64,000 nt of DNA from an uncultured Gammaproteobacteria bacterium (GCA_964633905.1 CAZWIT010000001.1:65535-129534); one strand, 5' to 3'. Positions 40,388 to 60,815 are shown, numbered from the stretch's first letter. Made by a program: numbers and translations. Notes: generated by a model not told the origin, from the sequence alone.

Positions 40388-40465
40388 TAGTCATCCTGAA
40401 CTTGTTTCAGGATCTCCAATTAACTATAGTAACTTGGAGATGCCGAAATAAATTCGGCATGACAA
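40388..40465 (+). repeat. Structured hairpin repeat element, copy 3 (GTCATCC-stem-ACTTGnT-stem-GGAT family)
   Basis: GTCATCCTGAACTTGTTTCAGGAT plus two further interlocked hairpins (ATCTCCAA…TTGGAGAT; ATGCCGAA-ATAAA-TTCGGCAT). 19/24 match to the copies at 48821 and 60790, with compensatory stem changes. Confidence 0.6.
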
Positions 40466-40483
40466 AAATAAATAATTAAACTA

Positions 40484-41755
40484 ATGCCGCTTAAAATAAA
40501 AAAAATAAGTGCTCAAGAAATTTTAGACTCACGGGGCAATCCAACCCTCGAGGTTAGTGTTGAGTTGGCTAATGGTTTTGTGGCTAGCGCTGGCGTGCCT
40601 TCTGGGGCTTCCACGGGCCGTTGGGAAGCTTTTGAATTAAGGGATGCAGATCAACATCGCTATGATGGTCTCGGTGTTTTAAAAGCGCTTAAAAACGTTA
40701 ATACTATTTTAAATGAAGAATTAAGTGGTTTGCAAGTTACTGAGCAAGCTCAAATTGACCAACTAATGATTGAGCTGGATGGTACTAAAAATAAAAGTAA
40801 CTTAGGGGCCAATGCTATTCTAGGTGTTTCTTTGGCAGTAGCCAAAGTTGCGGCTAAGGCTAATAATCTGCAACTCTATCAGTACTTGCGTCAATTGTAT
40901 AATAATAAATTAACTAAATATACAATGCCTACGCCAGTAGTCAATGTGATTAATGGTGGTAAGCACGGCAGTACTAATATTGATTTGCAAGAATTTTGGC
41001 TAGTGCCACATCAAGCTCATACTTTTGCTGATAAGCTAAGGCAAGCTAGTGAAATATTCCATGAGCTAGCAAATGTATTACATAATGTTGGTATGGATAT
41101 TGATCTGGGTAATGAAGGCGGTTATTCACCGGAAGCTAAAAGTCATCATCAAATTTTTGATTTATTGATGCAAGCAATCCATAAGAGTGGTTTTTCGGCA
41201 CCCGATGATATTGTTTTAGGTATTGATGCGGGGGCATCAGTATTTTATGATGAGATGGCAAGTACTTATCAATTAAAATTAGAAAAGAAAAAATATAGTT
41301 CGGATGAGCTAGCTGATTTTTATACTGAATTAATGCAAGCTTATCCTTTGCGTTTTTTAGAAGATCCTTTTGATCAAGAAGATTGGTCTGCTTGGCAGCA
41401 TTTTACTAAAGATGATTTTGTGACTAACCATAAAGTAAAAATTATCGGCGATGATTTATTTGTGACTAATGTTAGTCGTTTGCAAAAAGGTATTAAATTA
41501 AAAGCTGCTAATACAATTTTGATAAAACCAAACCAGATTGGAACGCTGACAGAAACTTTAGCAGCGATCAGTTTAGCACAAGCAAGTAACTACCAAATAA
41601 TGATTTCTCATCGTAGCGGTGAAACTACAGATACTACTATTGCCGATCTTGCAGTAGCTGTAAATGCTGAGTATATCAAAACTGGCTCTACTGCAAGGGG
41701 TGAGCGGATTGCTAAATATAATCGTTTATTAAGTATTGAAACTAGACTCAAGTAA
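40484..41755 (+). CDS. eno: Enolase
   Basis: EILDSRGNPTLEVSVEL…, 423 aa. Confidence 0.95.
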   Translation: MPLKIKKISAQEILDSRGNPTLEVSVELANGFVASAGVPSGASTGRWEAFELRDADQHRYDGLGVLKALKNVNTILNEELSGLQVTEQAQIDQLMIELDGTKNKSNLGANAILGVSLAVAKVAAKANNLQLYQYLRQLYNNKLTKYTMPTPVVNVINGGKHGSTNIDLQEFWLVPHQAHTFADKLRQASEIFHELANVLHNVGMDIDLGNEGGYSPEAKSHHQIFDLLMQAIHKSGFSAPDDIVLGIDAGASVFYDEMASTYQLKLEKKKYSSDELADFYTELMQAYPLRFLEDPFDQEDWSAWQHFTKDDFVTNHKVKIIGDDLFVTNVSRLQKGIKLKAANTILIKPNQIGTLTETLAAISLAQASNYQIMISHRSGETTDTTIADLAVAVNAEYIKTGSTARGERIAKYNRLLSIETRLK

Positions 41756-41762
41756 ATAATTT

Positions 41763-43346
41763 ATGCCAAGAATAAATTTTCATCGCAATGATAAAACAAG
41801 TGGGCCGGTAGTTTTGGCTATTTTAGATGGCTGGGGTATTAGTAAGGAAAATACAGGTAATGCTTTTGTTTTAGCTAAAAAACCAACTTTTGATAATTTA
41901 TTTAAAAAGTATCCACATGCAAAACTAGCCGCGTCTGGTGTCGAGGTTGGTTTGCCTGCTGGTCAGCCCGGAAATTCAGAGGCTGGTCATATGAATATTG
42001 GTGCTGGTCGGGTAGTTGAGCAGGATGCTGTTACTGTTTCCCGTTCTATTAATAATGGTACTTTTTTTAAGAACCCAGCTTTTTTGCAAGCCATCAAGCA
42101 TGTGAATAAACATAAATCTAGTATTCATCTGATGGGTTTGATTTCCAATGTTTCTAGCCCGCATTCTGATACTGATCATCTTTTATCTTTGTTAAGCTTG
42201 TTTCAACAAAAAACTAAACAACCGATTTATTTGCATTTATTTACTGATGGCCGTGATAGTCCAATTTTTGCTTCAGCTAAAATTTTAGCTCACTATCGTC
42301 ATATTTTTGATTCAGAGCGCGTGCATATTGCTACTATCATGGGTCGTTTTTATGCTATGGATAGAAAAAAGGCTTGGGATAGGACAAGGGCTGCTTATGA
42401 GGCTATGACTTTAGCCAAAGCCGAATTTTTTGCAGCTAATGCCGAGTCTGCTGTATCAGCGGCTTATGCTAGAGGTGAGAGTGATGAGTTTATCAAACCC
42501 ACAGTTATTTTAAATGGTAAAAAACCAGTAGCTACTATTGGTAATAATGACTCGGTAGTATTTTTTAATTTGCGTTCTGATCGAGCGCGACAGTTGAGCA
42601 AAGTTTTTGTTCAAGCTGATTTTGTCAAAAAAAATCCAGGTGCTTTTAAACCCAGTAAAGTTTTAAATAATTTAGTGTTTGTGGCTTTGACTGACTTTGG
42701 GCCAGATTTAGATAGTATTTTGACTGCTTATCCAGGTATAGATTTAGCTGATACTTTAGTGGCCAGTCTAAAAGATAAACGTCAGCTTTATATTGCTGAA
42801 ACCGAAAAATATGCCCATGTTACTTATTTTTTTAATGGCGGTTATGATCATGCGATTGTTGGTGAGACTAGAGTCAATATTCCTAGTCAAGAAGTAGATT
42901 CTTATGATATGTCTCCAGCTATGTCAGCATCACAAATTAGCAAATATATTGTTGATGTCTTACAAAATAAGCAATTTGATTTTGTAACTGTTAATTTTGC
43001 TAATCTTGATATGGTTGGACATACTGGCAATCTCCAGGCTGCTATTAAAGCCATTGAAGCAGTAGATTTGGCTTTAACTGATATTTTAAAAGCAGTTTTT
43101 GATCATAATGGTACTTTAATAGTTACAGCTGATCATGGTAATATAGAAGAGATGATAAATTTAAAAACTGGCGAAATTGATACCGAACATTCTATTAATC
43201 CAGTGCCATTTATTGTTGCTCAAAAAAATATAAAATATAAAATAAAAAGTAATGGCAGTTTGAGTAATATTGCTCCAACTATTTTAGAAATTATGAATGT
43301 TGATAAACCACTGGCCATGACTGCTAAATCTTTAATTATAAAATAA
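41763..43346 (+). CDS. gpmI: 2,3-bisphosphoglycerate-independent phosphoglycerate mutase (copy 1)
   Basis: ILDGWG, GNSEAGH (catalytic Ser), YAHVTYFFNGG, ADHGN. Confidence 0.9.
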   Translation: MPRINFHRNDKTSGPVVLAILDGWGISKENTGNAFVLAKKPTFDNLFKKYPHAKLAASGVEVGLPAGQPGNSEAGHMNIGAGRVVEQDAVTVSRSINNGTFFKNPAFLQAIKHVNKHKSSIHLMGLISNVSSPHSDTDHLLSLLSLFQQKTKQPIYLHLFTDGRDSPIFASAKILAHYRHIFDSERVHIATIMGRFYAMDRKKAWDRTRAAYEAMTLAKAEFFAANAESAVSAAYARGESDEFIKPTVILNGKKPVATIGNNDSVVFFNLRSDRARQLSKVFVQADFVKKNPGAFKPSKVLNNLVFVALTDFGPDLDSILTAYPGIDLADTLVASLKDKRQLYIAETEKYAHVTYFFNGGYDHAIVGETRVNIPSQEVDSYDMSPAMSASQISKYIVDVLQNKQFDFVTVNFANLDMVGHTGNLQAAIKAIEAVDLALTDILKAVFDHNGTLIVTADHGNIEEMINLKTGEIDTEHSINPVPFIVAQKNIKYKIKSNGSLSNIAPTILEIMNVDKPLAMTAKSLIIK

Positions 43347-43347
43347 A

Positions 43348-44925
43348 ATGAAAAGACCTCGCCCAGTAGTTTTGCTTATTCTTGATGGTTTTGGTATTGC
43401 GCCACCTTCGCGCGCTAATGCTATTTCTTTAGCTAAAACCCCAAATTTTGATAAATATTCGGTGCATTATCCAATCATGCCCATTGCTGCTTCGGGTGAA
43501 GCGGTAGGCTTGTCTTGGGGCGAGATGGGTAATAGCCAAGTCGGACACTTATCTTTGGGCTCAGGTTTAATTCCTTATCAAAATTTACCTAGGATTAATA
43601 AATCAATTACCGACGGCAGTTTTTTTAATAACGAAGCATTTTTAGCAGCCATCAAGCACACTCAAGACCATAATAGTGCTTTGCATATTTTAGGTTTAGT
43701 AAGTTCTGGTGGTGTGCATAGCTATAATGAACATCTTTATGCTTTGTTAGAATTAGCGCGTAAGCATAAAGTCAATCAGGTTTATGTGCATGCTTTTTTG
43801 GATGGTCGCGATACGCTCTATAATAGCGGTGTTAATTTTATTTCTAAATTACAAGAAAAATTAAGAAGTATTGGCGTCGGAGTTATCGCAACTGTGGGAG
43901 GGCGTTTTTATAGCATGGATAGGGATAATCGTTGGGATCGGGTTGCTAAAGCTTATGAGGCTATGGTTTTGGGTCAATCTCAAGATAAATATGACGATCC
44001 TATTACTGCTATTCAAGAGTCTTACAAAAAAAATATTTTCGATGAAGAAATGGTGCCCAGTGTTATTATTGATGACTTGGGGCAAGCTAAAGGTAAGATT
44101 AAAGACGGTGATGCAGTAATATTTTTTAATTTTCGTTCAGATCGGGCCAGACAAATGACAGAAGCTTTGACTGTTCCGGGTTTTGAAAAATTCCCTCGTG
44201 AATATTTTAAAGATTTATTCTTGGTGACCATGACCGAATATGAAAAGGATTTGCCAGTTAAAGTTGCTTTCCCACCATTGATAATCGATACGCCACTAGC
44301 TAAAGTAATTTCAGATGCTGGCTTAAAACAATTGCATATTGCTGAAACCGAAAAATATGCACACGTTACTTACTTTTTTAATGGCGGGCAAGAGCAAATT
44401 TATGCAGGTGAAGATAGGATTTTGGTGCCTTCTCCCCAGGTTGTGTCTTATGATCAAAAACCAGCTATGTCAGCACGGGAAATTACTAATAAGATTAATC
44501 AGGCTATTAAAGAAGGTAAATATGATTTTATTGTTGCTAATTTTGCTAATCCTGATATGGTGGCTCATACCGGTAATTTGCAGGCGACAATTGAAGCTAT
44601 TGAATTATTAGATCAATTAATTAATGAAATTGTAGAGGTTACTTTGTCTTATGAGGGCGTTGTTTTAATTACCGCCGATCATGGCAATGCTGAAGGTTTA
44701 TTTGATTTACAAACTGGTGAAATCGAAAAAGAGCATAGTAATAGTCCGGTGCCTTTATTTATCATTGGTTCGGAATTTGCTGGTAAAAGCGTTTTAACTG
44801 GTCTTACAAGCTCGGATCTTAGTCGCATTACGCCAGTTGGTGTTTTGGCTGATGTGGCCCCCACAATTTTAAAAATTATGGGTATTAAAAAACCACCAGC
44901 TATGACTGGCAGTTCCTTAATTTAA
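43348..44925 (+). CDS. 2,3-bisphosphoglycerate-independent phosphoglycerate mutase (tandem paralog, copy 2)
   Basis: ILDGFG, GNSQVGH, YAHVTYFFNGG, ADHGN. ~40% identity to copy 1. 1-nt intergenic gap. Confidence 0.85.
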   Translation: MKRPRPVVLLILDGFGIAPPSRANAISLAKTPNFDKYSVHYPIMPIAASGEAVGLSWGEMGNSQVGHLSLGSGLIPYQNLPRINKSITDGSFFNNEAFLAAIKHTQDHNSALHILGLVSSGGVHSYNEHLYALLELARKHKVNQVYVHAFLDGRDTLYNSGVNFISKLQEKLRSIGVGVIATVGGRFYSMDRDNRWDRVAKAYEAMVLGQSQDKYDDPITAIQESYKKNIFDEEMVPSVIIDDLGQAKGKIKDGDAVIFFNFRSDRARQMTEALTVPGFEKFPREYFKDLFLVTMTEYEKDLPVKVAFPPLIIDTPLAKVISDAGLKQLHIAETEKYAHVTYFFNGGQEQIYAGEDRILVPSPQVVSYDQKPAMSAREITNKINQAIKEGKYDFIVANFANPDMVAHTGNLQATIEAIELLDQLINEIVEVTLSYEGVVLITADHGNAEGLFDLQTGEIEKEHSNSPVPLFIIGSEFAGKSVLTGLTSSDLSRITPVGVLADVAPTILKIMGIKKPPAMTGSSLI

Positions 44926-44929
44926 AAAA

Positions 44930-45361
44930 TTAGTTAGGCCAAATATTGATTAGTAAAAAAGTAGTTACTAGACCCAAGATAATACCGACTAGTACTTCGC
45001 TGTTTTTGTGGCCAAAACGTTCTTCTAAAACCGGATAGTGATATTCCTTATTATCAGGTAGCTCTTTGATCAATTGGTTTATTAATTTGCTGTTTTTACC
45101 AATTTGCCAGCGGATACCAGTAGCATCACGGATAGTCAGCAGGGCTAAAATTAAAGCTAAAGCAAAGCTAGGCGAATCAAAGCCTTGAAATTTAGCCATT
45201 AGATAAACTAGGGAAGTAACAACTGCAGCGTGAGAAGAGGGCATGCCGCCGTAGCTAAGTATTGAAAACCAAGTAAATTTGCCTTGAAACATTTCAATGA
45301 CAACCTTGATTAATTGGTTTAAAATCATTACTATAAGGGGGATAAGAAATAGTTGATACAT
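44930..45361 (-). CDS. Divergent PAP2/DUF212-family membrane protein
   Basis: YGGMPSSHAA signature. Confidence 0.7.
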   Translation of the reverse strand: MYQLFLIPLIVMILNQLIKVVIEMFQGKFTWFSILSYGGMPSSHAAVVTSLVYLMAKFQGFDSPSFALALILALLTIRDATGIRWQIGKNSKLINQLIKELPDNKEYHYPVLEERFGHKNSEVLVGIILGLVTTFLLINIWPN

Positions 45362-45410
45362 AAGTTTTTATTATAATATAATCATTATAACAAATAATTA
45401 CTAAAATACA

Positions 45411-46166
45411 ATGAATTGGTGGCAGAGTATAATTTTGGGTATTAGTCAGGGCATTACTGAATGGCTACCCATTTCTAGTGACGGACATTTGGTTTTGCTA
45501 GAAAAAATAATGGCTGTGCAAGTTAATATTGCTTTTGATATTTTTTTACATCTAGGTAGTTTACTAGTAATCATTATTTTTTTCCGAGAGCAACTTAAAA
45601 ATTTCGTAAAAGATTTTTTTAAAAAACCAAGTAACTGGCCTGAGGACAGAAAAAAATGGTGGCAGTATTTTTTGATAAGTACTTTGCTTACTGGGATAAT
45701 TGGTTTGAGCATTTATCCTTTTATCGAAAATTTACGCACCTTAGAAATAGCTGCTTATGGTTTTTTATTAACTAGTTTATTTGTAGGGGCTAGCTTTTGG
45801 TCTAAAGAAAAAAGAGATTTTGGCTATATAATTGCTATTTTAATTGGCATTGTCCAAGGTTTGGCAGTCTTACCAGGTGTTTCTCGTAGCGGTTTAAGTT
45901 TGTCAGTAGCTTTACTATATGGCTTGAAGCGCCAAGCCGCCTTTGATTACGTTTTTATACTAGCGATTCCAGCGATCATTGCTTCTTTTATTTTATCAGT
46001 CAAAGATTTAGCTTGGCAGCCGGTTTATTTATTGGGATTTTTTACCACAATTATCGTTGGTCTACTAGCTTTAAATTTACTTAGGAAAATTGTCCAGCAT
46101 AATAAATTTTATCAATTTTGTTTTTATACTTTAGTATTAGGTATAGTAATTTTAGTTTTAAATTAA
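45411..46166 (+). CDS. uppP: Undecaprenyl-diphosphatase
   Basis: GISQGITEWLPISSDGHL motif. Confidence 0.85.
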   Translation: MNWWQSIILGISQGITEWLPISSDGHLVLLEKIMAVQVNIAFDIFLHLGSLLVIIIFFREQLKNFVKDFFKKPSNWPEDRKKWWQYFLISTLLTGIIGLSIYPFIENLRTLEIAAYGFLLTSLFVGASFWSKEKRDFGYIIAILIGIVQGLAVLPGVSRSGLSLSVALLYGLKRQAAFDYVFILAIPAIIASFILSVKDLAWQPVYLLGFFTTIIVGLLALNLLRKIVQHNKFYQFCFYTLVLGIVILVLN

Positions 46167-46167
46167 T

Positions 46168-47169
46168 ATGAAGATTTTTAAGAAGATATTATCACTCATT
46201 TTTTTAGGAGTATTAGTTTTTGCGCTTTGGTTTGCTTATAATCTATTTTTCAATAATGCTTTAAGTAAAGATCAGAGTTTTAGTATTGAAACTGGTCAGG
46301 GCGTTAATCAAATAAGCGCCAATTTATTTGATCAAGGTATTATTAGAAATAAATTTGTTTTTGAAACTTGGCTATGGTTAAAAAGGGAAGAAAATAAAGT
46401 AGTGGCCGGAGTTTATGATCTGCCGAGGGGGATTAGTATTTATCGTTTAAGTAATACGATCACTAAATTACCAGCCAATAGTCAACGTTCAGTTTTGCTG
46501 CCCGAAGGTTTAGACCGTAGGAGTGTTGCTGAAATTTTAAAAAATAAAGGTTTTGATGCCGATAAATTTTTATTAATTAGTGGTGATAAAGGGGAGTGGC
46601 AGACAGAATTTACTTTTTTGCGGGATGCTCCACGCATTGCTAGCTTAGAAGGTTATATTTTTCCAGACACTTATTTTGTTGATAAATATACAACAGTTGA
46701 GGATTTTATTAAGAAGACTTTAGCTAATTTTGATCGGAAATTAAGTGATAAATTAAGAGCGGAAATTGTTACTCAAAATCAAACCATCTTTGAAGTAGTC
46801 ACTTTGGCTTCTATTATTGAGCGTGAAGTGCCTAATGACTCTGACAAAAAAATGATTGCTGATATTTTTTTAAAGCGCTTAAAGATTAATATGGCTTTGC
46901 AGTCGGATGCCACTGTTAATTTTGTGACTGGCAAGGGTTTAGCTCAGCCGACCTATGCAGATTTGGAAGTTGATTCACCTTATAATACTTATAAAAACCC
47001 AGGCTTGCCTCCGGGCCCTATTTCTAGTCCAGGTATTAGTAGCATTGAAGCTGTTTTATATCCAACTCCTAATGATTATTATTATTTCCTAACTGATAAA
47101 GAAGGTAAAGTTTATTACGCCAAAACTTATGACGAACATTTAGCTAATAAGGCAAAATATTTAGACTAG
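46168..47169 (+). CDS. mltG: Endolytic murein transglycosylase MltG/YceG-like
   Basis: N-terminal TM plus YceG-like domain (…VTLASIIEREV…). Confidence 0.75.
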   Translation: MKIFKKILSLIFLGVLVFALWFAYNLFFNNALSKDQSFSIETGQGVNQISANLFDQGIIRNKFVFETWLWLKREENKVVAGVYDLPRGISIYRLSNTITKLPANSQRSVLLPEGLDRRSVAEILKNKGFDADKFLLISGDKGEWQTEFTFLRDAPRIASLEGYIFPDTYFVDKYTTVEDFIKKTLANFDRKLSDKLRAEIVTQNQTIFEVVTLASIIEREVPNDSDKKMIADIFLKRLKINMALQSDATVNFVTGKGLAQPTYADLEVDSPYNTYKNPGLPPGPISSPGISSIEAVLYPTPNDYYYFLTDKEGKVYYAKTYDEHLANKAKYLD

Positions 47170-47192
47170 GTTTTATTTATAATCTAAAATTA

Positions 47193-48732: not shown

Positions 48733-48745
48733 ATTTTTCTATTCA

Positions 48746-48860
48746 AAAACTGACCCATCTACGTCATTCCCGCGAAAGCGGGAATCCCATTGTTCTGGCA
48801 TATAGTCAAATTAATGGTAGATCCCGCATCAAGTGCGGGATGACACAAGGGTCAGTTTTT
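48746..48860. repeat. Structured hairpin repeat element, copy 1 (nested inverted repeats)
   Basis: Outer IR AAAAACTGACCC…GGGTCAGTTTTT. Inner hairpins GTCATTCCCGC-GAAA-GCGGGAAT and ATCCCGCA-TCAAG-TGCGGGATGAC (48821-48844). Sits between convergent rplL and the 694-aa gene. Confidence 0.65.
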
Positions 48861-48872: not shown

Positions 48873-50957
48873 TTATTGATTAACGGCTAGTAAATAGAGA
48901 TGTTGACCATTGAGTAAATAAATTGCTTGTTCGTTAGGGTCAATGGTTAGATCAAGTAATTGATCAAATTTTAGGGAAGTATATTGGTCTTTAATATTAC
49001 CGTCTTTATTTAAAATAACTACGCGTTGGTTACTGGGATCAATAATATAGAGATATTTAGAATCACGGAAAGTTTGGATAGTAGCCTGAGCGCCAATTTT
49101 TGGATTGGGTGTTTGGTAGTTAAATTCTTCTGTTTTTCCTTTGGTAAATTTTTTGATCTGACCTTGGTTATCAATAGTATAAATACTGCCATCAACTGTA
49201 AAACTAGAAACATCTTGTAGATTTACCGTTTCTTTTAACCAAGCTTGACCATTGCTAAAGCTATTTGCATTTTCTGGGTATTTAAAAAATTGATTGCCTT
49301 TAGCGTCTAAAACATAGAGATTGTTGCTATAGATGTTTAAATCTTGGACGCTAGTATTGCCGGAAGATTGGGATAAGGGGAAGTTAGCTTGTTTATTTTC
49401 GGTAATATCATAAATAAAAAATTGTTCACTATTACCAACTACTAGGCGTTGACTTTGGGGCCAGTCCGCTAAAAATTTGCCTTGATTAAAGTCAGAAACA
49501 GCGTTTAAGTTTCGGTCTTTTAGTAAATAAATTTTTTGACTATCCAAGATATAAAAATTGCCATCTTTTTGAACAATTTGTTGGGGGTTTACTAAAGTAC
49601 TTAAACTACTTAATTCTAATGGCTCGGGAACATCGTGAATGCGTCGCACTTCATTTAATTGTTTGCGAGTCTTTTCTTTAAAGGTAGCAATTTCTTCTTC
49701 TTGTTGTTTGCTAGTGAGTTTTAAGTTTTCTAAGGTTGTTTGGATTTCTAGTAGGATGGTTTCAGCGGCTATTTGGTCATTGTAAATCAGTTTACTATCA
49801 GCTTCAGCAAATTTACCATCAATTGAACTTATTAATTCTTGATAAACTTTATCTTTTTGACTAACTGATTTTTTTTGAGTTAAAAAAACTAAACTTTGAA
49901 TAAATATTAAGACTGTAGCCAGTAAACCGACTAAAGCAATTTTTTGGGCAGACTTTAATCTTTGCCACCAATTATATTTTTTATCAAAGGTATTTTTTAC
50001 TTCTGATAATACTTGCTCTTCCTTTTGTTTGCGCCAGTGTGGTGAAAAAATAAACAAAATACTATTTTTTATTTGGCGGTATAAAAATCTTAATACTTTA
50101 TAGACACTGATAAAAAATAAAGCTATTAAGGCAAAAAATCTTTTTATTTTTTGTAAAGGATTATTATTGTGTTTATGCTCAAAGTCTAAGCTAGCTTGGT
50201 GATGACTAGGTGTTTTAGGTCGATGATAACTAATAAGATCTGACTTTTTCTTTATTTCATCATTTGCTTCAATAGTAGTATTTGCTGAGGCTACTTGATC
50301 ATAATCTCCAGGACCACTATTTTTTATTACCACAGCGTTAAAGCTAACAAAATCAGGCACAGTAGCCAGGAGTGAATTAAGTTTGATTACTGTAGCTTGT
50401 GGGGTATAGCGTTTGGCTATTTGTCTAATTTTTTCTTGGGCAATATAGTCAAGGAGTGAGTTGGTAGAAATAATAAAAACATCGCCTTCTTCAAGTAAAC
50501 CGCTGTGAATGTCAGTAAAAGCTTTGCTGGGGCTAAAGTTTTGTTTTTTATGTAAAACAGCTTCTAGGCGGTGGCGTGATAGAGCAAGTCCGTTGATCTG
50601 ACCAATGTTTGATAAATGAATAGCTTCATTATTAAAAATGCCAATAGCCATATCTAAACCATATAACCAGTTGCGAATTTTGCTAGCGGCGCTTAATTCT
50701 GGTAATAGGCTGTTTATTTTTTGCAAGATATCTTCTAAAACAATCTCTGGATTAGAATTTTTGCTAGAACTAAGGATATTACTAGCTTCGCTGATAATTT
50801 GTTCTAAAAGTGCTTGCTGGTCTATTTTATTTTTTTGGACTTCTAGTACGATAAAAAGACGACCACAGGCCGCAGCATCGCTAATATAGTTGACAGATAA
50901 TTCACGAGCACTAAAGGCGTCGTGGCGGAATAATCTGTGATATCTTAAGTCCGGCAT
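48873..50957 (-). CDS. Large membrane protein: degenerate PPM/SpoIIE-like N-domain, 2 TM, coiled coil, C-terminal beta-propeller-like repeats
   Basis: …EEGDVFIISTNSLLDYI… (PP2C-like GDxxxxxSDGL pattern). TM helices FFALIALFFISVY / IALVGLLATVLIF. Repeated [FY]x[IL]D…N units in the last 250 aa. Confidence 0.5.
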   Translation of the reverse strand: MPDLRYHRLFRHDAFSARELSVNYISDAAACGRLFIVLEVQKNKIDQQALLEQIISEASNILSSSKNSNPEIVLEDILQKINSLLPELSAASKIRNWLYGLDMAIGIFNNEAIHLSNIGQINGLALSRHRLEAVLHKKQNFSPSKAFTDIHSGLLEEGDVFIISTNSLLDYIAQEKIRQIAKRYTPQATVIKLNSLLATVPDFVSFNAVVIKNSGPGDYDQVASANTTIEANDEIKKKSDLISYHRPKTPSHHQASLDFEHKHNNNPLQKIKRFFALIALFFISVYKVLRFLYRQIKNSILFIFSPHWRKQKEEQVLSEVKNTFDKKYNWWQRLKSAQKIALVGLLATVLIFIQSLVFLTQKKSVSQKDKVYQELISSIDGKFAEADSKLIYNDQIAAETILLEIQTTLENLKLTSKQQEEEIATFKEKTRKQLNEVRRIHDVPEPLELSSLSTLVNPQQIVQKDGNFYILDSQKIYLLKDRNLNAVSDFNQGKFLADWPQSQRLVVGNSEQFFIYDITENKQANFPLSQSSGNTSVQDLNIYSNNLYVLDAKGNQFFKYPENANSFSNGQAWLKETVNLQDVSSFTVDGSIYTIDNQGQIKKFTKGKTEEFNYQTPNPKIGAQATIQTFRDSKYLYIIDPSNQRVVILNKDGNIKDQYTSLKFDQLLDLTIDPNEQAIYLLNGQHLYLLAVNQ

Positions 50958-54218: not shown

Positions 54219-54242
54219 ACTAAAAATTAGTTTTGGTAATCT

Positions 54243-56051
54243 ATGAATTGGGGACGCAACAGCTTTAATCAAACTATTATTACCAGAACTAATATTTTAC
54301 AGAGTATTATTTTTTTATTTATACTAGCGGTCATTGGCCGCTTGTTTTATTTGCAAATTATTAAAAATAAATATTATTTTGACTTAGGTTTATCACAACG
54401 TGGTGTTGAACAAGAAGTAAAACCTGAGAGAGGGAGAATATTAGCTTTAAGTTCTGAAACAGAAGCAGAACAGTTTTATCCTTTGGCAGTCAATAAAGTT
54501 TATTATGAGGTCATTTTAAATCCTAGTAAAATTACTCGACCTCAGAATATGGCGGATATTTTAGCTGAGACTTTAGAAATGGATAAAAATCTTGTTTTAG
54601 AAAAGGTGAAATTAGTTGATAAACGTTATGAATTGCTTGCTAAAAATATCAGTGAAGATAAAATTATCACTATTAAATCAAAACTAGAAGAGATTTTAAC
54701 TGATGTTAATCAGGGTAAATCAAGTAAAGATAAATTAAGGACAATTGAAGAATTAGGCATTAGTTTTAATAAAAGTGTTTTGCGTTATTATCCCGACAAG
54801 GAAGTAGGTGCTCATATTTTGGGTTTTTTAGGTTTTGCTGAAGATGGAGTAAGTCGCGTTGGTAAATATGGTTTAGAAGCCTATTTTGAAAAAGATTTAT
54901 CAGGCCAAACTGGTTGGGTTTTAGGTGAAAAAGATGTAGCTGGAGTACTACTTGCTGATAGCCAAGCCGAAGCAGCGGTTAATGGGGCTGATTTAGTTTT
55001 GACCATTGATCACACTGTTCAATACAAAGCTTGTAAGATGTTAGAAAAATCAGTAATAAAACACAGTGCTGATAGGGGTTCTTTGATTATTTTAGATAGT
55101 AGCACAGGAGCTATTCGGGCTATGTGTAATTATCCTAGTTTTGATCCTAATGAATACAATAAGGTAAGTGATGCTAATGTTTATAATAACTTAGCTGTTT
55201 ATCAAGCCTATGAGCCTGGTTCAGTTATGAAAGCTCTTGCTATGGCTATTGCTATTGACCAGGGTAAGGTCAATCCAACTACCATGTATGAAGACAAGGG
55301 TGAAATTAAATTCGCTAGCGGTCAAGTTATTCGTAATGCTGGTAATAAGACCTATGGTTTTGTTGATATGAAAAAAGTCTTAGCTTATTCTATTAACACT
55401 GGTATTGTTCGTGCTACTTCAGATGTGCCTAACAAAGTATTTCATGATTATATGAAAAATTTTGGTTTTGGCGAAGCAACTAATATTTATTTAAGTCAGG
55501 AAGTCAAAGGCGATATAGATGAATTAGAAAAAAAAGGTGATATTTATAAAGCTACTGCTTCTTATGGTCATGGTATTACAGTTACGCCTTTGCAAATGGT
55601 TAATGCTTTTAATGTTATTGCTAATCGTGGTAATCTGATGCAGCCTTATATTATTAACTCAGTTCGCTATAATGATAAAGTAATTGCTCAATATGAGCCT
55701 AAAATTTTACGTCGAGAAGTAATTTCTACGCAAACAGCCTCAACTCTATCTGCAATGTTGGTACACGTAGTAGATAGCGAACACGCTGTTGGCGCTCGCG
55801 TGCCAGGATATTTTGTTGCTGGTAAATCAGGCACAGCTCAAGTTGCTAGTATTGGAGCTAAAAAATATGATAGCAGTGTTACTATTCATAGTTTTATTGG
55901 TTTTGCTCCTAATGAAAATCCTAAATTCACCATGTTAGTAAAATTAGATAACCCTAAGACTGCTCAATACTCTGAAGCCACGGCTATTCCTTTATTTGGC
56001 GAAATTGCTAAATTTCTGTTAGAATACTATCGCATTCCACCCAGTCGTTAA
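54243..56051 (+). CDS. ftsI: Penicillin-binding protein (FtsI/PBP2-type transpeptidase)
   Basis: N-terminal TM, dimerisation domain, transpeptidase motifs (SVMK…, SIN, KSGT). Confidence 0.85.
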   Translation: MNWGRNSFNQTIITRTNILQSIIFLFILAVIGRLFYLQIIKNKYYFDLGLSQRGVEQEVKPERGRILALSSETEAEQFYPLAVNKVYYEVILNPSKITRPQNMADILAETLEMDKNLVLEKVKLVDKRYELLAKNISEDKIITIKSKLEEILTDVNQGKSSKDKLRTIEELGISFNKSVLRYYPDKEVGAHILGFLGFAEDGVSRVGKYGLEAYFEKDLSGQTGWVLGEKDVAGVLLADSQAEAAVNGADLVLTIDHTVQYKACKMLEKSVIKHSADRGSLIILDSSTGAIRAMCNYPSFDPNEYNKVSDANVYNNLAVYQAYEPGSVMKALAMAIAIDQGKVNPTTMYEDKGEIKFASGQVIRNAGNKTYGFVDMKKVLAYSINTGIVRATSDVPNKVFHDYMKNFGFGEATNIYLSQEVKGDIDELEKKGDIYKATASYGHGITVTPLQMVNAFNVIANRGNLMQPYIINSVRYNDKVIAQYEPKILRREVISTQTASTLSAMLVHVVDSEHAVGARVPGYFVAGKSGTAQVASIGAKKYDSSVTIHSFIGFAPNENPKFTMLVKLDNPKTAQYSEATAIPLFGEIAKFLLEYYRIPPSR

Positions 56052-56062
56052 ATATTAGTAAA

Positions 56063-57340
56063 ATGAGTAAAATTTTGAGAAAACCATTGTTTTGGCTATT
56101 AAAGTTACTGGCTAAGGCAACTATCAAAAAATACCAACCAAAAGTGATTGGCATTACTGGTTCAGTTGGTAAAACATCGGCAAAATTTGCAACTGCTGTT
56201 GTTTTGGCATCAAAATTTTCTATTCGTTATGGTAAAAAGAATTATAATAACGAAATTGGTTTACCGCTCACTATTTTAGGAGATGATCTTACTGCTGGAA
56301 AAAATATTTTTGTTTGGTTTAGGATTTTTTTAAGGGCTTTAAAAAATTTATTATTTACAGATAAAAAATATCCTCAAGTTTTAATTTTAGAAATGGGTGC
56401 AGATCGTCCAGGTAATATTGATTATTTGGTTGATATTGCGTCACCACATATAGCAGTAATTACAGCAATTGGTGCTAGTCATTTAGAGTTTTTTGGCAGC
56501 ATTGATAAAGTATTAATTGAAAAATCTAAGATTTTTAAAAAATTAAAATCAGGCGATTGGGCCGTTTTAAATAGTGATGATGTTTATTTACAAAAAATTA
56601 TTCCTCAGATTAAAAATAATATTCACACCTTTGGCACTAGTGCGGATAGTAGTTTGCAGATTGAACAAGTGCATTTAAGTAAAAAGAATGACAGTTATGG
56701 TACTAGTTTTAAATTAAAGTTTAAAGGTGCTGAAGCGCCAGTATTTTTGCCTAATGTCTTGGGTAAACAGCAGGCCGCAGCTAGCGCTGCCGCTGCCTCT
56801 GTTGGTTTGCTTATGGGTTTAAATTTAGTAGAGATTAGTCAATCTTTGATTAATTATAAATCAGCTTTAGGCCGCACTAATTTAATTAAAGGCATAAAAA
56901 ATACTTGGATTATTGATGATACTTATAATGCTTCACCGCAATCTTGTTTGGCAGCTTTAGAAATTTTAACAAATTTTCCGCTAGCTGGTAGAAAAATAGC
57001 AGTTTTTGGTGACATGAGAGAATTGGGTAATTTTAGCGAAGAAGGGCATAGGCAAGTAGGTGAGGCAGTAGTTAAATTTAAAATAGATTATTTATTTGTT
57101 ATTGGTGAAAAATCACGCGATATTGCTCGTAGTGCGCAAGACCAGGGCATGCCCGAAGATCATATTTATCATTTTCCGCAGACAATAGAAGCAGGTATTT
57201 TTTTACAAGAGAGGTTAAAAGACAATGATATAATTTTGGTTAAGGGTTCTAGGGGTAGTAAGATGGAGCAGGTGGTGTATGAGATTATGGCTAGACCATG
57301 GGATGCGGATGAATTATTAGTTGCTAAAGTTAGTCGTTAG
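56063..57340 (+). CDS. murF: Mur ligase (UDP-MurNAc-pentapeptide synthetase MurF-like)
   Basis: GITGSVGKTS P-loop, Mur ligase middle/C domains, position after ftsI. Could alternatively be MurE. Confidence 0.7.
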   Translation: MSKILRKPLFWLLKLLAKATIKKYQPKVIGITGSVGKTSAKFATAVVLASKFSIRYGKKNYNNEIGLPLTILGDDLTAGKNIFVWFRIFLRALKNLLFTDKKYPQVLILEMGADRPGNIDYLVDIASPHIAVITAIGASHLEFFGSIDKVLIEKSKIFKKLKSGDWAVLNSDDVYLQKIIPQIKNNIHTFGTSADSSLQIEQVHLSKKNDSYGTSFKLKFKGAEAPVFLPNVLGKQQAAASAAAASVGLLMGLNLVEISQSLINYKSALGRTNLIKGIKNTWIIDDTYNASPQSCLAALEILTNFPLAGRKIAVFGDMRELGNFSEEGHRQVGEAVVKFKIDYLFVIGEKSRDIARSAQDQGMPEDHIYHFPQTIEAGIFLQERLKDNDIILVKGSRGSKMEQVVYEIMARPWDADELLVAKVSR

Positions 57341-57397
57341 TAAGTTAGTTTTGATTGACAAAGATTTATTTTTTTGTTAGAAATATTAAAGTTTTTT

Positions 57398-57472
57398 GGC
57401 CCTATCGTCTAACGGTTAGGACGCGTGGTTCTCAACCATGCAATCAGGGTTCGATTCCCTGTAGGGTCACCA
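57398..57472 (+). tRNA. tRNA-Glu (anticodon CTC), CCA encoded
   Basis: GGCCCTATCGTCTAACGGTTAGGACGCGTGG-TTCTCAA-CCATG…GGTTCGATTCCCTG-TAGGGTC-A-CCA. Similar to E. coli tRNA-Glu. Confidence 0.85.
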
Positions 57473-57473
57473 A

Positions 57474-57550
57474 GGTCGCATGGCTCAGCTGGTTAGAGCG
57501 TCGCATTCACATTGCGAAGGTCCCTGGTTCGAATCCAGGTGCGACCACCA
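57474..57550 (+). tRNA. tRNA-Val (anticodon CAC), CCA encoded
   Basis: Acceptor GGTCGCA/TGCGACC, D-arm GCTCAGCTGGTTAGAGC, anticodon stem-loop TCGCA-TTCACAT-TGCGA, T-loop TTCGAAT. 1-nt spacer from tRNA-Glu. Confidence 0.85.
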
Positions 57551-57565
57551 TTATTGAGTAATTAA

Positions 57566-57592
57566 AAAAATCAACCGATCTGGTTGTTTTTT
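57566..57592. terminator. Bidirectional terminator between the tRNAs and the GC-rich cassette
   Basis: Palindromic CAACCGATCTGGTTG flanked by A-run and T-run. A further hairpin AAGACCC…GGGTCTT (57606-57634) and GC-rich hairpin (57652-57685) serve the minus strand. Confidence 0.6.
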
Positions 57593-57700
57593 GGTATAAA
57601 AAACAAGACCCTTATTTATACTCCTTGGGTCTTAGGTAGGAGTTGGTGGTAGGCGGGCCCGAAGCTTGCAGCTTCGAACCCGCCGTACCGGTCGGAGGTG

Positions 57701-58525
57701 CTAGCCGCGCCGCGCCTTGGCAGCCGCGAGCAGCTGGTTGGCGATGACACGGGCCTCGCCGTTCACGGGCTTCAGCGGCTCGTGATCCAGCTTGGCAATG
57801 GCTTCATCCTGCACCGTGAGGTCACGGATGACCTCGTCGATGCTCTCGACGTCCGGGATCGCGATCGCGATCCCCATGCCGCCGTGGTCTCTCATGCAGA
57901 CCAGGCAGAGCCTCCAGACCTTGTCGCCGAGCGGAACCTGGGGCACGCCGTTCTTCCCGAACACGGGAATCCCGGCCTTGCCATCGATGCCGGTGCCCAG
58001 CTTGGTGACCATCTGCAGGGTGTCGGCCTCGTCTTCGCTGCGCTTCGTCTTCATCTGTGAGACGAACTCGCAGACACGGATGAAGACGCGGTCGGACGGG
58101 TAGTCCGGGTTGGTGGCGTAGAAGGCCAGCGCCGCGTTGATGTCCTTGGCGTACTGGTCGTTCTCCATCGCCATCGCCGACTTCTGCTGCTGCAGAGCCT
58201 CGATGCAATCGCGGACCCGGTCGTGGTCATGGTTCATCATGCCCACGGCCTCGTCCTGGTCGGGCCAGATCCGCATGACGAGCATGCGGTAGCCGTCGCC
58301 CGGAACCTGCAGGCCGCGCCGACGGTCGTCGATGACGACCGACAGGGGCTTGGCGGTGCCGATGCCGTGTTCGGCCGCGCCGTCTTGGACGTACACGACG
58401 CCGTAGGCGTTGCGGTACTCGCTGCGGGTGTTGCCGGTGGCGGTGGTCGGAGCGGTGGCGGTGGTCGGAGCGGTGGCGGCGGGAGCAGCGGCCTTGGGGG
58501 CCTTGGTGTTGGTCTTACGAGCCAT
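57701..58525 (-). CDS. Hypothetical 274-aa protein, ~65% GC foreign cassette gene 'B' (Ala/Pro/Thr-rich N-terminal tail)
   Basis: Coherent high-GC3 codon usage on the minus strand. SD AGGAGG 8 nt before ATG. Own consensus promoter P2 and downstream hairpins. The N-terminus MARKTNTKAPKAAAPAATAPTTATAPTTATG… is low-complexity. No motif recognised. Confidence 0.6.
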   Translation of the reverse strand: MARKTNTKAPKAAAPAATAPTTATAPTTATGNTRSEYRNAYGVVYVQDGAAEHGIGTAKPLSVVIDDRRRGLQVPGDGYRMLVMRIWPDQDEAVGMMNHDHDRVRDCIEALQQQKSAMAMENDQYAKDINAALAFYATNPDYPSDRVFIRVCEFVSQMKTKRSEDEADTLQMVTKLGTGIDGKAGIPVFGKNGVPQVPLGDKVWRLCLVCMRDHGGMGIAIAIPDVESIDEVIRDLTVQDEAIAKLDHEPLKPVNGEARVIANQLLAAAKARRG

Positions 58526-58623
58526 CTTGCTTACCTCCTGAAAATTAGAATGTGCACATCCCCTAAAGTGACAACAGTACCAACAGTCAGTACGTTTATT
58601 AGGGGATTTTTCATTATATCATA

Positions 58624-58652
58624 TATACAAATATTTGTCAAGGGTATTGAAA
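58624..58652 (-). promoter_or_regulatory. Promoter P2 (minus): TTGACA-17-TG-n-TATAAT
   Basis: Minus strand TTGACAaatatttgtatatatgaTATAAT. Confidence 0.65.
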
Positions 58653-58713
58653 AGCCCCGGCACTAGGTGCGTCGGGGCTTGGGGCGAAGTGGTACAACAC
58701 AGTCGGCTTGCTA

Positions 58714-59091
58714 CTAGATGTAGCAATTGATCTTGACCCTGGAAATGACTTCTCCAGAGACGCGATCACGAAGTAGTACTTCGTAATTGCCCACCACCAA
58801 GGTGGCTTTGGGATCGTTCATGACTTTAGCCAACAAGCGGCCATTCTTATAGATTTCCATGTAGGCCAGCTTCCTGGCCTGGTTGGATACCATGCAGATG
58901 GGCTTTTCATCAGCCAAGCGGAGGCGGATCGAATCGCCATCGACACAGACGTAGCTAGTATCGATATAGCGCGGGTTGGGCCGAACCAGGATGGTCGCTT
59001 CCCCAGGCTTGGTGATCGGCTGCGAATTGCAGGCGGCAAGCAGAGTCAGCGAAAGAAACAGCAGGCTGGCGATCAGGAAGAACTTACGCAT
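58714..59091 (-). CDS. Putative lipoprotein, GC ~55%, foreign cassette gene 'C'
   Basis: Signal peptide plus lipobox LLAAC. SD AAGGAGG 6 nt before ATG. Own promoter P3. Confidence 0.55.
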   Translation of the reverse strand: MRKFFLIASLLFLSLTLLAACNSQPITKPGEATILVRPNPRYIDTSYVCVDGDSIRLRLADEKPICMVSNQARKLAYMEIYKNGRLLAKVMNDPKATLVVGNYEVLLRDRVSGEVISRVKINCYI

Positions 59092-59143
59092 CTTAACCCT
59101 CCTTGGTTTTTTGCCACTTCAATTGTCCTTAAAGAGCTTATAT

Positions 59144-59172
59144 ATTATATCATATATATTGATTATTGTCAA
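59144..59172 (-). promoter_or_regulatory. Promoter P3 (minus): TTGACA-17-TG-n-TATAAT
   Basis: Minus strand TTGACAataatcaatatatatgaTATAAT. Shares the 14-mer ATATATGATATAAT with P2. Confidence 0.65.
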
Positions 59173-59303
59173 ATATAATATATTAATCTTTTATAGCATT
59201 GACCCGCCTATGCTAAAGCTTCGGCGGGCGAGATGTGGTTTTTAAGAATAAATAGAAGTAGAGATGAGGTGTATTTTCTTATTAATGATTAGTTCTATTA
59301 ACC

Positions 59304-59397
59304 TTGACAATTAGCTTATTTTTTGTTAACATTTACCCCGTTAAATGCCGCGTGCGGCAATCGCGTTAAACGCGATTATTTAACGGGGTGAACCCCG
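59304..59397 (+). promoter_or_regulatory. rplU promoter + L21-leader-like structured 5' UTR
   Basis: TTGACA(59304)-17-TAACAT. Then CCCCGTTAAAT[GCCGCGTGCGGC][AATCGCGTTAAACGCGATT]ATTTAACGGGG. The GGGG can alternatively pair with the downstream CCCC (GGGG-TGAA-CCCC), giving mutually exclusive structures. Confidence 0.5.
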
Positions 59398-59420
59398 TAT
59401 TTATAAATTATTATATTATT

Positions 59421-59738
59421 ATGTTAGCAGTAATAAAAACTGGTGGTAAACAATACCCAGTCAAAGTTGGCGACAAATTATCAGTCGAAAAATTAGCAGT
59501 TACTGAAAATGGTGCTAAAGTTATTTTTGATGAAGTTTTACTTGTGATTGATGATAAAGATCAGGTAACTGTTGGTAAACCATTACTTGATAAAGTTAAA
59601 GTAGAAGCTAGTTTAGTTAAAAACTATAAAACTAAAAAAGTGGATGTCTTAAAATATAAAAATAAGACTCGTTATCGTAAACGTTTTGGACATCGTCAGC
59701 AACAAGCTGAAGTCAAAATTGAAAAAATTATCTTATAA
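59421..59738 (+). CDS. rplU: 50S ribosomal protein L21
   Basis: MLAVIKTGGKQYPVKVGDKL… The true start is 59421; the track ORF 59388 is an extension. Confidence 0.9.
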   Translation: MLAVIKTGGKQYPVKVGDKLSVEKLAVTENGAKVIFDEVLLVIDDKDQVTVGKPLLDKVKVEASLVKNYKTKKVDVLKYKNKTRYRKRFGHRQQQAEVKIEKIIL

Positions 59739-59741
59739 TAA

Positions 59742-59782
59742 AAAAGCCGTCCATTCGACTATGCTCAGGACGGTTTTTTTAT
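59742..59782. terminator. Bidirectional terminator between rplU (+) and recR (-)
   Basis: AAAAAAGCCGTCC-…-GGACGGTTTTTTT. Confidence 0.65.
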
Positions 59783-59786
59783 TTGT

Positions 59787-60383
59787 TTATAATTCTTTTC
59801 TATTCTGTAGAGCGGAACTTAAGGTAGCCTCATCGGTGTATTCAATATTTGCCCCCATAGGTATACCACGGGCTAGTTGGCTAATTTTGATGGGATATTT
59901 TTTAAGGAGCTTGCTCAAGTATAAAGTAGTAGCTTCTCCTTCTAGGCTTTGATCTAAAGCTAAAATTATTTCTTGGATATTATTTTTACTTAAACGAATT
60001 TCTAATTCTTTGATTTTGAGTTTATCAGGGGTTACTCCTTCTAAAGGGCTTAAGTAGCCGCTAAGTAAGTGGTAGGTGCCATTAAATTCTCCAGTTTTTT
60101 CAATAGCTTCTACATCCTGATTATGAGCTACAATACAAATTAGATTTTGATTCCTTTTAGGATCAGCGCAGATATTGCACAAACCTTGATCGCTTAGATT
60201 AAAGCATTGAGGGCAAAAACTGACTTGTGAATAGGCATCATCTAGAGCTCGAGCTAATTCTTTCATATCGGCTTTGCGGTGCAATAAATCAAAAGCTAGC
60301 CGGGTGGAAGTTTTAGGTCCAATACCCGGCAGTTTATCAAATTCGTTTATTATTTTTTGGATAAAGTCTGGTAAGTAAGCCAC
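59787..60383 (-). CDS. recR: Recombination protein RecR
   Basis: HhH N-terminus (LPGIGPKTSTRLAF), C4 zinc finger (CPQC…CNIC), Toprim. Confidence 0.9.
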   Translation of the reverse strand: MAYLPDFIQKIINEFDKLPGIGPKTSTRLAFDLLHRKADMKELARALDDAYSQVSFCPQCFNLSDQGLCNICADPKRNQNLICIVAHNQDVEAIEKTGEFNGTYHLLSGYLSPLEGVTPDKLKIKELEIRLSKNNIQEIILALDQSLEGEATTLYLSKLLKKYPIKISQLARGIPMGANIEYTDEATLSSALQNRKEL

Positions 60384-60394
60384 TTGCTTATAGA

Positions 60395-60688
60395 TTATTT
60401 TAAGCCAGACAAATCAAAGCCACCGTTTTGTTGCATAACAGTAGCCATTTTTCTCTGGATTTTTTTAATGCATTCAGCCAAGCCATCTTTGATAGCTTTT
60501 TCTAATTCAGCTTTTTTGTCAGGTGATAAAAATTCTTTTTTAATATCAATAGATTTTAATTCTTGATTGCCATCCATGACAATTTTGACAGCACTATTTT
60601 CGACTTCGACTATTTCTTTAGCTAAAATTGATTTTAAATCATTTGCTTGTTTGCGTAAGTCGTTAAATTGTTTTAATTTGTTGAACAT
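60395..60688 (-). CDS. ybaB: Nucleoid-associated protein YbaB/EbfC
   Basis: 97 aa, characteristic MQQNGGFDLSGL C-terminus. Lies upstream of recR. Confidence 0.85.
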   Translation of the reverse strand: MFNKLKQFNDLRKQANDLKSILAKEIVEVENSAVKIVMDGNQELKSIDIKKEFLSPDKKAELEKAIKDGLAECIKKIQRKMATVMQQNGGFDLSGLK

Positions 60689-60711
60689 ATTTTTATTAAT
60701 TATCCTTTCTT

Positions 60712-60815
60712 GTCATTCCCGTTCCGTATCAAGTACGGGATAAACTCCAGCGGGAATCTAAATTTTTATTTTTTAATTATTTTTTTGGGATCCAGCATCA
60801 AGTGCGGGATGACAG
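60712..60815. repeat. Structured hairpin repeat element, copy 2
   Basis: GTCATTCCCG…CGGGAATC and ATCCAGCATCAAGTGCGGGATGAC (60790-60813). Same two-module order as copy 1. Lies between dnaB and ybaB. Confidence 0.65.

Follow-up and report, generated by a model that had tools for sequence, protein, structure and literature searches.

A 64,000-nucleotide stretch of DNA listed under an uncultured Gammaproteobacteria bacterium (GCA_964633905.1 CAZWIT010000001.1:65535-129534), hereafter the window, was found to carry three dispersed pairs of short hairpin modules that resemble the NTS/SRM repeats (NTS, Neisseria Transformation Sequence), and one of these pairs lies beside a gene for a small GIY-YIG protein. 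NTS/SRM repeats have been described together with their partner proteins, the Ssn nucleases (Chenal et al., Nat Commun 2025; PMC11893778). In our judgement the three loci are probably SRM/NTS-like hairpin doublets of the Ssn kind, that is, DNA-level elements, not RNAs, which arrived by insertion. The link to this family came from a full-text search with the string GTCATTCCCGC, which led to the paper of Chenal et al. The original prediction, made from the sequence alone, had described a structured hairpin repeat, and missed that its motif is the published NTS/SRM motif and that the GIY-YIG gene by one of the copies probably belongs to the partner protein family. All named best matches of two proteins from the window were from Patescibacteria/Parcubacteria, so the organism was taken to be a member of that group, which falls within the Candidate Phyla Radiation (CPR).

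Hairpin modules, their match to the published motif and their distribution

Direct reading of the three regions revealed each to be a pair of modules in opposite orientation (Table 1). A module consisted of GTC, an 8-bp stem starting with AT, a loop of 4-5 nt, the return stem and a C. There were six full modules in the window and a seventh, degenerate module nested within one of the six. The doublets spanned 48763-48844 (copy 1), 60712-60813 (copy 2) and 40390-40463 (copy 3), with the GTC heads pointing outward in all three. Each was intergenic: copy 1 lay between the convergent rplL and an open reading frame (ORF) of 694 aa, copy 2 between dnaB and ybaB, and copy 3 between the GIY-YIG ORF and eno.

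Everything that the original prediction described at these loci was found there, namely the module GTCATCC-stem-ACTTG(A/T)T-stem'-GGAT (minus strand for copies 1 and 2, plus strand for copy 3), a second module, GTCATTCCCG...CGGGAAT, in copies 1 and 2, and an outer 12-bp inverted repeat around copy 1 (48745-48756 and 48849-48860). Its account of copy 3 as a single module did not hold; a second module, GTCATGCCGAATTTATTTCGGCATC, was present on the minus strand, so that copy 3 is also a heads-outward doublet, of 74 nt, with a central stem (TCTCCAA/TTGGAGA) between its modules.

Table 1. Positions of the hairpin modules, the terminator around copy 1 and the ssn homologue, counted from the first nucleotide of the window.
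Feature	Position	Strand	Sequence or description
Copy 3 left SRM module	40390..40414	+	GTC-ATCCTGAA-cttgt-TTCAGGAT-C
Copy 3 right SRM module	40439..40463	-	GTC-ATGCCGAA-tttat-TTCGGCAT-C
Copy 1 left SRM module	48763..48786	+	GTC-ATTCCCGC-gaaa-GCGGGAAT-C
Copy 1 right SRM module	48820..48844	-	GTC-ATCCCGCA-cttga-TGCGGGAT-C
Copy 2 left SRM module	60712..60758	+	GTC-ATTCCCG...CGGGAAT-C, loop 28-29 nt
Nested degenerate SRM-like hairpin, in the loop of the copy 2 left module	60722..60745	-	GTTT-ATCCCGTA-cttga-TACGGAA
Copy 2 right SRM module	60789..60813	-	GTC-ATCCCGCA-cttga-TGCTGGAT-C, one stem mismatch
Bidirectional intrinsic terminator of convergent rplL and 694-aa ORF	48745..48860	both	outer stem AAAAACTGACCC / GGGTCAGTTTTT; loop holds copy 1 doublet
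ssn homologue, single-domain GIY-YIG, 96 codons	40089..40379	+	Pfam PF01541, E 7.6e-18

As single-stranded DNA (ssDNA), each doublet was predicted to fold into a three-way junction formed by a closing GTCAT/ATGAC stem, the two module hairpins and the central stem. The predicted DNA folds had energies of -28.3 kcal/mol for the whole copy 1 element (z -6.5), -14.2 kcal/mol for copy 2 (z -2.8) and -17.7 kcal/mol for copy 3 (z -6.5). The window was also scanned strictly for GTCAT, at least 5 of 6 internal pairs, a loop of 4-5 nt and ATC, with 500 dinucleotide shuffles as the control. This yielded 6 matches against a mean of 0.02 in the shuffles. The dispersed hairpin repeat is genuine, as had been predicted. 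Intact modules accounted for five of the six matches; the sixth, at 49776, was AT-rich, fell within a coding region and is probably due to chance. An 18-mer, CATCAAGTGCGGGATGAC, was present exactly in copies 1 and 2 (0 expected by chance). Copies 1 and 2 on the one hand and copy 3 on the other are different subfamilies and not one element that has diverged.

Near-identical strains from other sequencing runs retained copy 2 apart from one single-nucleotide polymorphism (SNP), and in L133 one SNP improved the stem of the nested hairpin, to TACGGGA. The outer end of the copy 2 doublet (ATGACA) and an AAAAAT (60689-60716, minus strand) form a sigma-70-like -35/-10 pair directly upstream of ybaB; a promoter at this position is unlikely because the -10 abuts the ybaB start codon.

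The NTS is CGTCATTCCCGCGMAVGCGGGAATCYRG and contains the older dRS3 repeat, ATTCCC-N8-GGGAAT, and the degenerate SRM pattern has been given as HGTCWY-N0-2-YYVSBRH-N0-5-WNVSBRG-N0-2-RNCYNB (PMC11893778). Comparison with these motifs revealed the left module of copy 1 to match the NTS at 26 of 28 positions (48762-48789, 2 mismatches) and to fit dRS3 exactly. The right module of copy 1 matched the SRM pattern exactly (48817-48845, minus strand; shuffles gave 0.025). When the left module of copy 1 was fitted to the pattern by hand the last position was the sole miss, and the loop of the split copy 2 module was too long. All six full modules had a (Y/A)GTC head, A-T first pairs and a C right after the palindrome. 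In 224 unique modules from other genomes, which had 48 different stems, the C was present in 94% and the stem started with A in 98% and continued with T in 92%. The C after the palindrome is the base most critical for binding by Ssn, the three upstream bases are critical for cutting, and altering the stem sequence with the hairpin kept abolishes the activity of SsnA (PMC11893778).

The loops varied among modules, with GAAA, TTTAT and CCCCGA all found. CTTGA, the loop of several modules, could be a nick site for an HUH Rep protein, like those of phiX174 and pC194. This candidate function was dropped, as the loops vary and loop identity is dispensable for Ssn (PMC11893778). The exact fit of the copy 1 left module to dRS3 is a likeness to the dRS3 repeats and to the Neisseria intergenic mosaic elements (NIME) that these repeats flank, and in Neisseria dRS3 is known as a phage integration site (PMC11893778, introduction). 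The window differs in that nothing suggested RS segments between its repeats or the use of its repeats for phage integration.

Further copies were sought by a search over one genome per species. The 18-mer was found exactly in at least 120 genome stretches from many phyla, including Patescibacteria, Coxiellaceae, Rickettsiales, Bacteroidota, Chloroflexota, Campylobacterota, Spirochaetota, Alpha- and Gammaproteobacteria and others, and in most cases made up the right half of a doublet of this kind. Rickettsia and Rickettsiales contigs were among those that carried it, and Rickettsia and Wolbachia have been listed among SRM-rich genomes (PMC11893778). In viral contigs the 18-mer occurred in 4 stretches only; phages are not an obvious carrier. 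An exact 25-mer of the right module of copy 3 was present in at least 120 metagenome stretches, and an ssn ORF was found in only 8 of 120 of these loci. When the ORFs within 1.5 kb of the 18-mer at 120 loci were clustered all against all, no dominant family emerged and there was a small GIY-YIG cluster only; a profile search of the same loci revealed 6 Ssn ORFs.

Pairing of the stems was analysed in every GTCAT-N17-ATC within about 0.94 Mb of fetched DNA, and pairing was not required for inclusion, to avoid circularity. There were 72 unique sequences of this form, against about 29 expected by chance, and in their alignment the six internal pairs were 78% paired compared to 51% in shuffles. With the search anchor set aside, internal pairing among the remaining 71 was bimodal: 36 had 6/6 Watson-Crick pairs (about 0.02 expected) and about 25 were random-like. 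The covariation score was 0.622 compared to 0.195 in shuffles; none of the 500 shuffles attained this score, and the highest value among slid controls was 0.16. Within the copy 3 class, compensatory changes distinguished the window stem ATCCTGAA/TTCAGGAT from ATTCTGAA/TTCAGAAT and ACCCTGAA/TTCAGGGT of L127. The original prediction was right that there is selection on pairing, whereas the contrast that it had read as compensatory, between the stems of copies 1 and 2 and that of copy 3, sets two subfamilies apart.

The GIY-YIG gene beside copy 3

SRM repeats are spatially associated, across phyla, with the small single-domain GIY-YIG protein SsnA (94 aa, CDD cd10448). Ssn binds the hairpin as ssDNA only and cuts a few nucleotides upstream of it, as found for four homologues; it does not act on RNA, on duplex DNA or on the reverse strand (PMC11893778). 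The GIY-YIG ORF beside copy 3 is a putative homologue of this gene, with an in-frame TAA at codon 75 (40311-40313), and the called ORF is accordingly 74 aa long (40089-40313). Reading through the TAA gave 22 further codons, WKINLVESVNKNWEDLSKEFI up to a stop ending at 40379, which were intact and conserved. There were more than 6000 homologues, and the nearest, besides the window's own 74-aa product (P0004), had 85, 81 and 77% identity and were all 96 aa long. Four homologues read as DNA encoded Gln (CAA or CAG) or Asp (GAT) at codon 75, and the TAA would seem to be a recent nonsense mutation of one base, from CAA to TAA. The interrupted gene would be either a recent pseudogene or the source of a truncated protein that lacks the C-terminal helix. 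The 74-aa product was also present in a 211-kb NCBI contig and, independently, in the Logan assembly of run SRR13355620.

Residues Y8, Y19 and E66 of the ssn homologue were spaced in the same way as Y6, Y17 and E64, the catalytic residues of Neisseria meningitidis SsnA. The protein showed 53% identity (E 6e-36) to the product of the SRM-flanked gene at L113 and 41% identity (E 5e-26) to that of an SRM-adjacent gene at L115, from a Sphingomonadaceae genome. Through these SRM-adjacent GIY-YIG homologues there is indirect evidence that ORF 40089 is a member of the Ssn family.

The copy 3 doublet begins 10 nt after the reconstructed ssn stop, and no SRM module was found upstream of the gene, where just 38 nt separate it from pgk. 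The order of ssn followed by a doublet recurred at L124, L123, L127 and L113, and at L127 there were SRMs on both sides of the gene. The proteins of L124, L123 and L127 (77, 71 and 68% identical to that of the window) were accompanied by stems of the copy 3 type, and the left hairpin of copy 3 itself also adjoined the ssn homologues of L124 and L127. The doublet that accompanied ssn at L113, ATTCCTGC/ATCCCGCA, was of the NTS type, like copies 1 and 2. Pairings of protein and hairpin therefore make up at least two classes, and the window encoded a gene of the copy 3 class only. Judging from this arrangement, the hairpin pair of copy 3 would be cognate to the ssn gene next to it, and copies 1 and 2 would be dispersed copies of a second, NTS-type subfamily that has no gene of its own here.

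The likeness to the published NTS/SRM-Ssn system thus includes the GTC head, the hairpin and the C after the palindrome, a putative partner, a single-domain GIY-YIG protein of about 95 aa whose gene is flanked by SRMs, and apparently many dispersed copies for few genes. The differences are the host, a CPR bacterium from a group not mentioned in the paper, the in-frame stop in the window's ssn, and the stems of copy 3 (ATGCCGAA and ATCCTGAA), which are of another specificity class than the NTS.

A second small GIY-YIG ORF was encoded at 18264-18521 (plus strand; 85 aa, PF01541, E 2e-17). It shared only 37% identity with the ssn homologue and had no SRM module detected in its vicinity, and it probably belongs to a different, UPF0213-like subfamily. 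At L123 (1501-1794) the start of ssn overlapped the end of a ComEC-type competence gene (PF03772), which is of interest given that natural transformation is the process in which Ssn has a demonstrated role in Neisseria.

Insertion and inversion of doublets and their possible movement

Orthologous loci were found through protein-database homologues of the lineage-specific 694-aa ORF together with contig look-ups; a metagenome scan with the same 694-aa protein gave no matches. In L134 and L135, where this flanking protein was 93% identical, and in L137 (77%), the spacers between rplL and the 694-aa ORF were 53 and 49 nt long, compared to 140 nt in the window. The spacer of these relatives was a plain bidirectional terminator, AAAAAACCGCT-caagatt-AGCGGTTTTTT, with a loop of 7-10 nt and no doublet, and no SRM module was found in the 18.7 kb of L134. 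In the window the corresponding terminator stem (CTGACCC/GGGTCAG, with its A-run and T-run) encloses the 82-nt copy 1 doublet in its loop. No target-site duplication was visible at this insertion.

A second comparison concerned copy 3. In L136, where the neighbour protein was 55% identical, pgk lay about 30-40 nt from eno, with neither ssn nor a doublet between them, and the cassette of about 430 bp that holds ssn and the doublet is therefore an insertion. L124 had the same pgk-ssn-doublet-eno order as the window, and its doublet was the reverse complement of the window's, so that the modules swap sides relative to the genes; the modules themselves showed a single-base difference from those of copy 3. 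Because the two modules of the doublet differ from each other, a flip or re-insertion of the whole doublet is the sole explanation of this arrangement. Comparison of these loci indicates that the doublets and the ssn-doublet cassette arrived by insertion. The doublet as a unit, insertion polymorphism and inversion are absent from the main text of the published description, where behaviour of the repeats like that of insertion sequences is a hypothesis only (PMC11893778). The comparative evidence presented here exceeds that text, without establishing a mechanism.

Over all loci, neighbouring modules were arranged heads-outward in 79 cases, heads-inward in 19 and in tandem in 17. Short-read contigs from several samples stopped inside or right beside the elements. 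Two insertion targets were readable, the loop of a terminator (copy 1) and the loop of another SRM (the nested module of copy 2), and these hint at exposed hairpin loops as insertion sites, although not as a general rule.

Several related arrangements were observed at other loci. In L136 (12092-12284) the intact rplL terminator was followed by a different GTCAT-headed palindrome, GTCATTGCGAG...CTCGCAATGAC, which had its own outer inverted repeat (GCCGCCCGCTGGCC/GGCCAGCGGGCGG); the rplL spacer has therefore been struck independently by another hairpin family. In L028, L006, L089 (Coxiellaceae), L017 (Bacteroides) and L032 (Pseudoalteromonas) only the 3' half of a module was reiterated in tandem after a full hairpin, as AGTGCGGGATGAC plus 8-15 nt with a period of 20-28 nt. 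Whole doublets were also arrayed in tandem, as in L032 with 8 copies, each of 136 nt. Such reiteration suggests repeated nick-and-copy or slippage at the cut site.

The original prediction had offered three candidates for the repeat, a terminator family, a small RNA and an element like repetitive extragenic palindromes (REP) or miniature inverted-repeat transposable elements (MITE). A family of transcription terminators or attenuators would fit the intergenic position of all copies and the outer stem and T-run of copy 1 after rplL. The terminator of copy 1 is this outer stem around the doublet, and relatives end rplL with the plain hairpin and no doublet. No module was followed by a T-run, a terminator scan of the three loci gave 0 sites, the two strands of each doublet both carry a module, and copies 2 and 3 lie between co-directional genes, close to the downstream start codon. 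We regard this explanation as highly improbable.

We give an equally small chance to a structured small RNA or cis-regulatory RNA motif, which the strong predicted folds (z -6.5) and the covariation would favour. The elements are near-palindromic, so that both strands fold equally, their pairs were almost all Watson-Crick with few G-U, and presence or absence at one locus among close relatives speaks against a conserved regulatory role. The sole Rfam match on copy 1 (E up to 10) was FtrB, far below threshold at 20 bits compared to a gathering score of 66 (E 0.55), and the partner protein family binds ssDNA and not RNA (PMC11893778). At the gathering threshold Rfam matched only tRNAs in the whole window. 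CRISPR repeats, integron attC sites and hammerhead-like ribozymes were likewise rejected, with no regular spacing and no Rfam match at gathering threshold; the attC R'/R'' boxes and the ribozyme core were judged by eye only.

The third candidate, the REP/MITE-like element, came closest of those offered, although the REP system itself, mobilised by a REP-associated tyrosine transposase (RAYT; a Y1 HUH transposase of the IS200/IS605 type), was not supported. The layout is shared with REP doublets (REPINs) and bacterial interspersed mosaic elements (BIMEs): paired inverted hairpins recognised as ssDNA, dispersed and intergenic, which outnumber a small nuclease gene that they flank. In contrast, the conserved head here is GTC(A/T) and not the GTAG-type REP head, the gene beside the repeats encodes a GIY-YIG hydrolase and not a Y1 transposase, and Ssn is not known to carry out transposition chemistry. 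A weak test, tblastn of the window with an approximate IS200 TnpA sequence, gave nothing better than E 4.8. A classical REPIN moved by RAYT is the least probable of the explanations considered. Short insertions abundant in the small genomes of host-dependent bacteria also include Rickettsia palindromic elements (RPEs) and MITE-like palindromes. The doublets differ from these in that no terminal-inverted-repeat transposase or target-site duplication was seen here, and RPEs are known for in-frame insertion into genes whereas the three doublets of the window are intergenic.

From the published biochemistry, a module would fold into a hairpin when DNA becomes single-stranded during replication, repair or DNA uptake, and Ssn would bind the folded module and nick that strand only, a few nucleotides 5' of the GTC head (PMC11893778). 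Because a doublet has one module per strand with the heads outward, the predicted nicks would fall just outside both of its ends, one on each strand. Such a geometry would be consistent with the doublet being excised, flipped or copied through repair as one unit. We infer that Ssn, or repair induced by its nicks, may move the doublets, and that the doublets may still act on ssDNA in this organism. Taken further, the SRM doublet could be a non-autonomous mobile element, analogous to REPINs, that is moved in trans by a GIY-YIG single-strand nuclease. Nicks outside the GTC heads would then free or flip the element, and exposed hairpin loops, for example that of the rplL terminator or of another SRM, would receive the new copies. 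We advance this proposal tentatively and hold it to be possible rather than probable.

An alternative, to which we also attach a limited likelihood, is that the host keeps the hairpins as control sites for incoming or exposed ssDNA, which would tune transformation and recombination, and that they are not currently mobile. This overlaps with the identification of the loci as SRM doublets of the Ssn kind and differs in function only. The only in-vivo function demonstrated for the family is of this kind, as SsnA in Neisseria limits transformation by NTS-bearing DNA (PMC11893778). The overlap of ssn with a ComEC-type gene at L123 and the retention of copy 2, one SNP aside, in strains from separate sequencing runs also speak for control sites. 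Against them, the insertion polymorphism and inversion between relatives show recent movement, and the window's ssn has a nonsense codon.

Several findings weigh against the SRM/Ssn explanation. GIY-YIG enzymes are hydrolases, which form no covalent intermediate and carry out no strand transfer alone, and an extra repair or annealing step would therefore be needed. The published SRM pattern matched one module only, and the others missed by position or loop length. The comparison of the ssn homologue with N. meningitidis SsnA covered the spacing of catalytic residues only. The sole ssn of the window is interrupted by a nonsense codon, and copies 1 and 2 have no cognate gene within the 64 kb. 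Enrichment of ssn near the modules was modest, with 6 genes in 821 kb around the 18-mer and 8 in 757 kb around the 25-mer. Inverted repeats flanking 77 doublets were barely above the control, and terminator-like flanks are no general feature.

Other features of the window and significance of the doublets

A T-box match (RF00230) was found at 11177-11415 on the minus strand, covering the full-length model at 58 bits, which is under the gathering score (93; local-search E 6e-12). It lay upstream of two minus-strand ORFs, of 167 aa and then of 402 aa (PF00591; TrpD-like, glycosyl transferase family 3), and adjoined a tRNA-Trp(CCA) at 11538-11612. The match may represent a T-box of a CPR bacterium that is divergent and responds to Trp. 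The original prediction had seen the stem of the repeat again in this region. A CCCGCA/TGCGGG stem does exist inside the T-box match (11378-11394), but the AT at the start of the stem and the 3' C are both absent, and of the module only GTC precedes it (minus strand); it is unrelated to the SRM modules and is not a member of their family.

At 5295-5373 (plus strand) ARAGORN called a tRNA with a four-base anticodon (tacg), which the Rfam tRNA model scored at 42 bits only; it may be a pseudogene, or a tRNA that is unusual or of the frameshift type. A 42-nt repeat, GAGCCCTTTATTTTTGACAAAAATTTTTAATTATGTTAATTT, occurred about 30 nt after each of two tRNA genes (5402-5443 and 11646-11687; 83% identical), and as it contains a TTGACA hexamer like a -35 element it may be a repeated promoter. 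A 74-nt direct repeat (28464-28537 and 31130-31203; 92% identical) ended in GGAGG...ATG and resembles a duplicated 5' leader that includes a ribosome-binding site, before two genes 2.7 kb apart. The G+C content was 0.40-0.46 at 12001-14000 and 56001-60000 compared to about 0.33 elsewhere in the window, and these segments may have been laterally acquired.

The three doublets and the gene beside copy 3 extend the SRM repeats and their Ssn nuclease, described in 2025 mainly in Proteobacteria and other Pseudomonadati, to the streamlined genome of a member of the Patescibacteria. They also supply comparative evidence for the mobility that had been hypothesised, in the form of orthologous sites with and without the insertion, the inverted doublet of a syntenic locus, one nested insertion and a decaying ssn. 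As SRM hairpins break short-read assemblies and create spurious small ORFs, their recognition improves the annotation of CPR genomes, and new Ssn-hairpin pairs are candidate site-specific cutters of ssDNA. If the mobile-element proposal is true, the doublets would represent a class of transposable element driven by a hydrolytic GIY-YIG enzyme and not by a transposase, and one that is shared almost base for base over more than 10 phyla, the CPR included.

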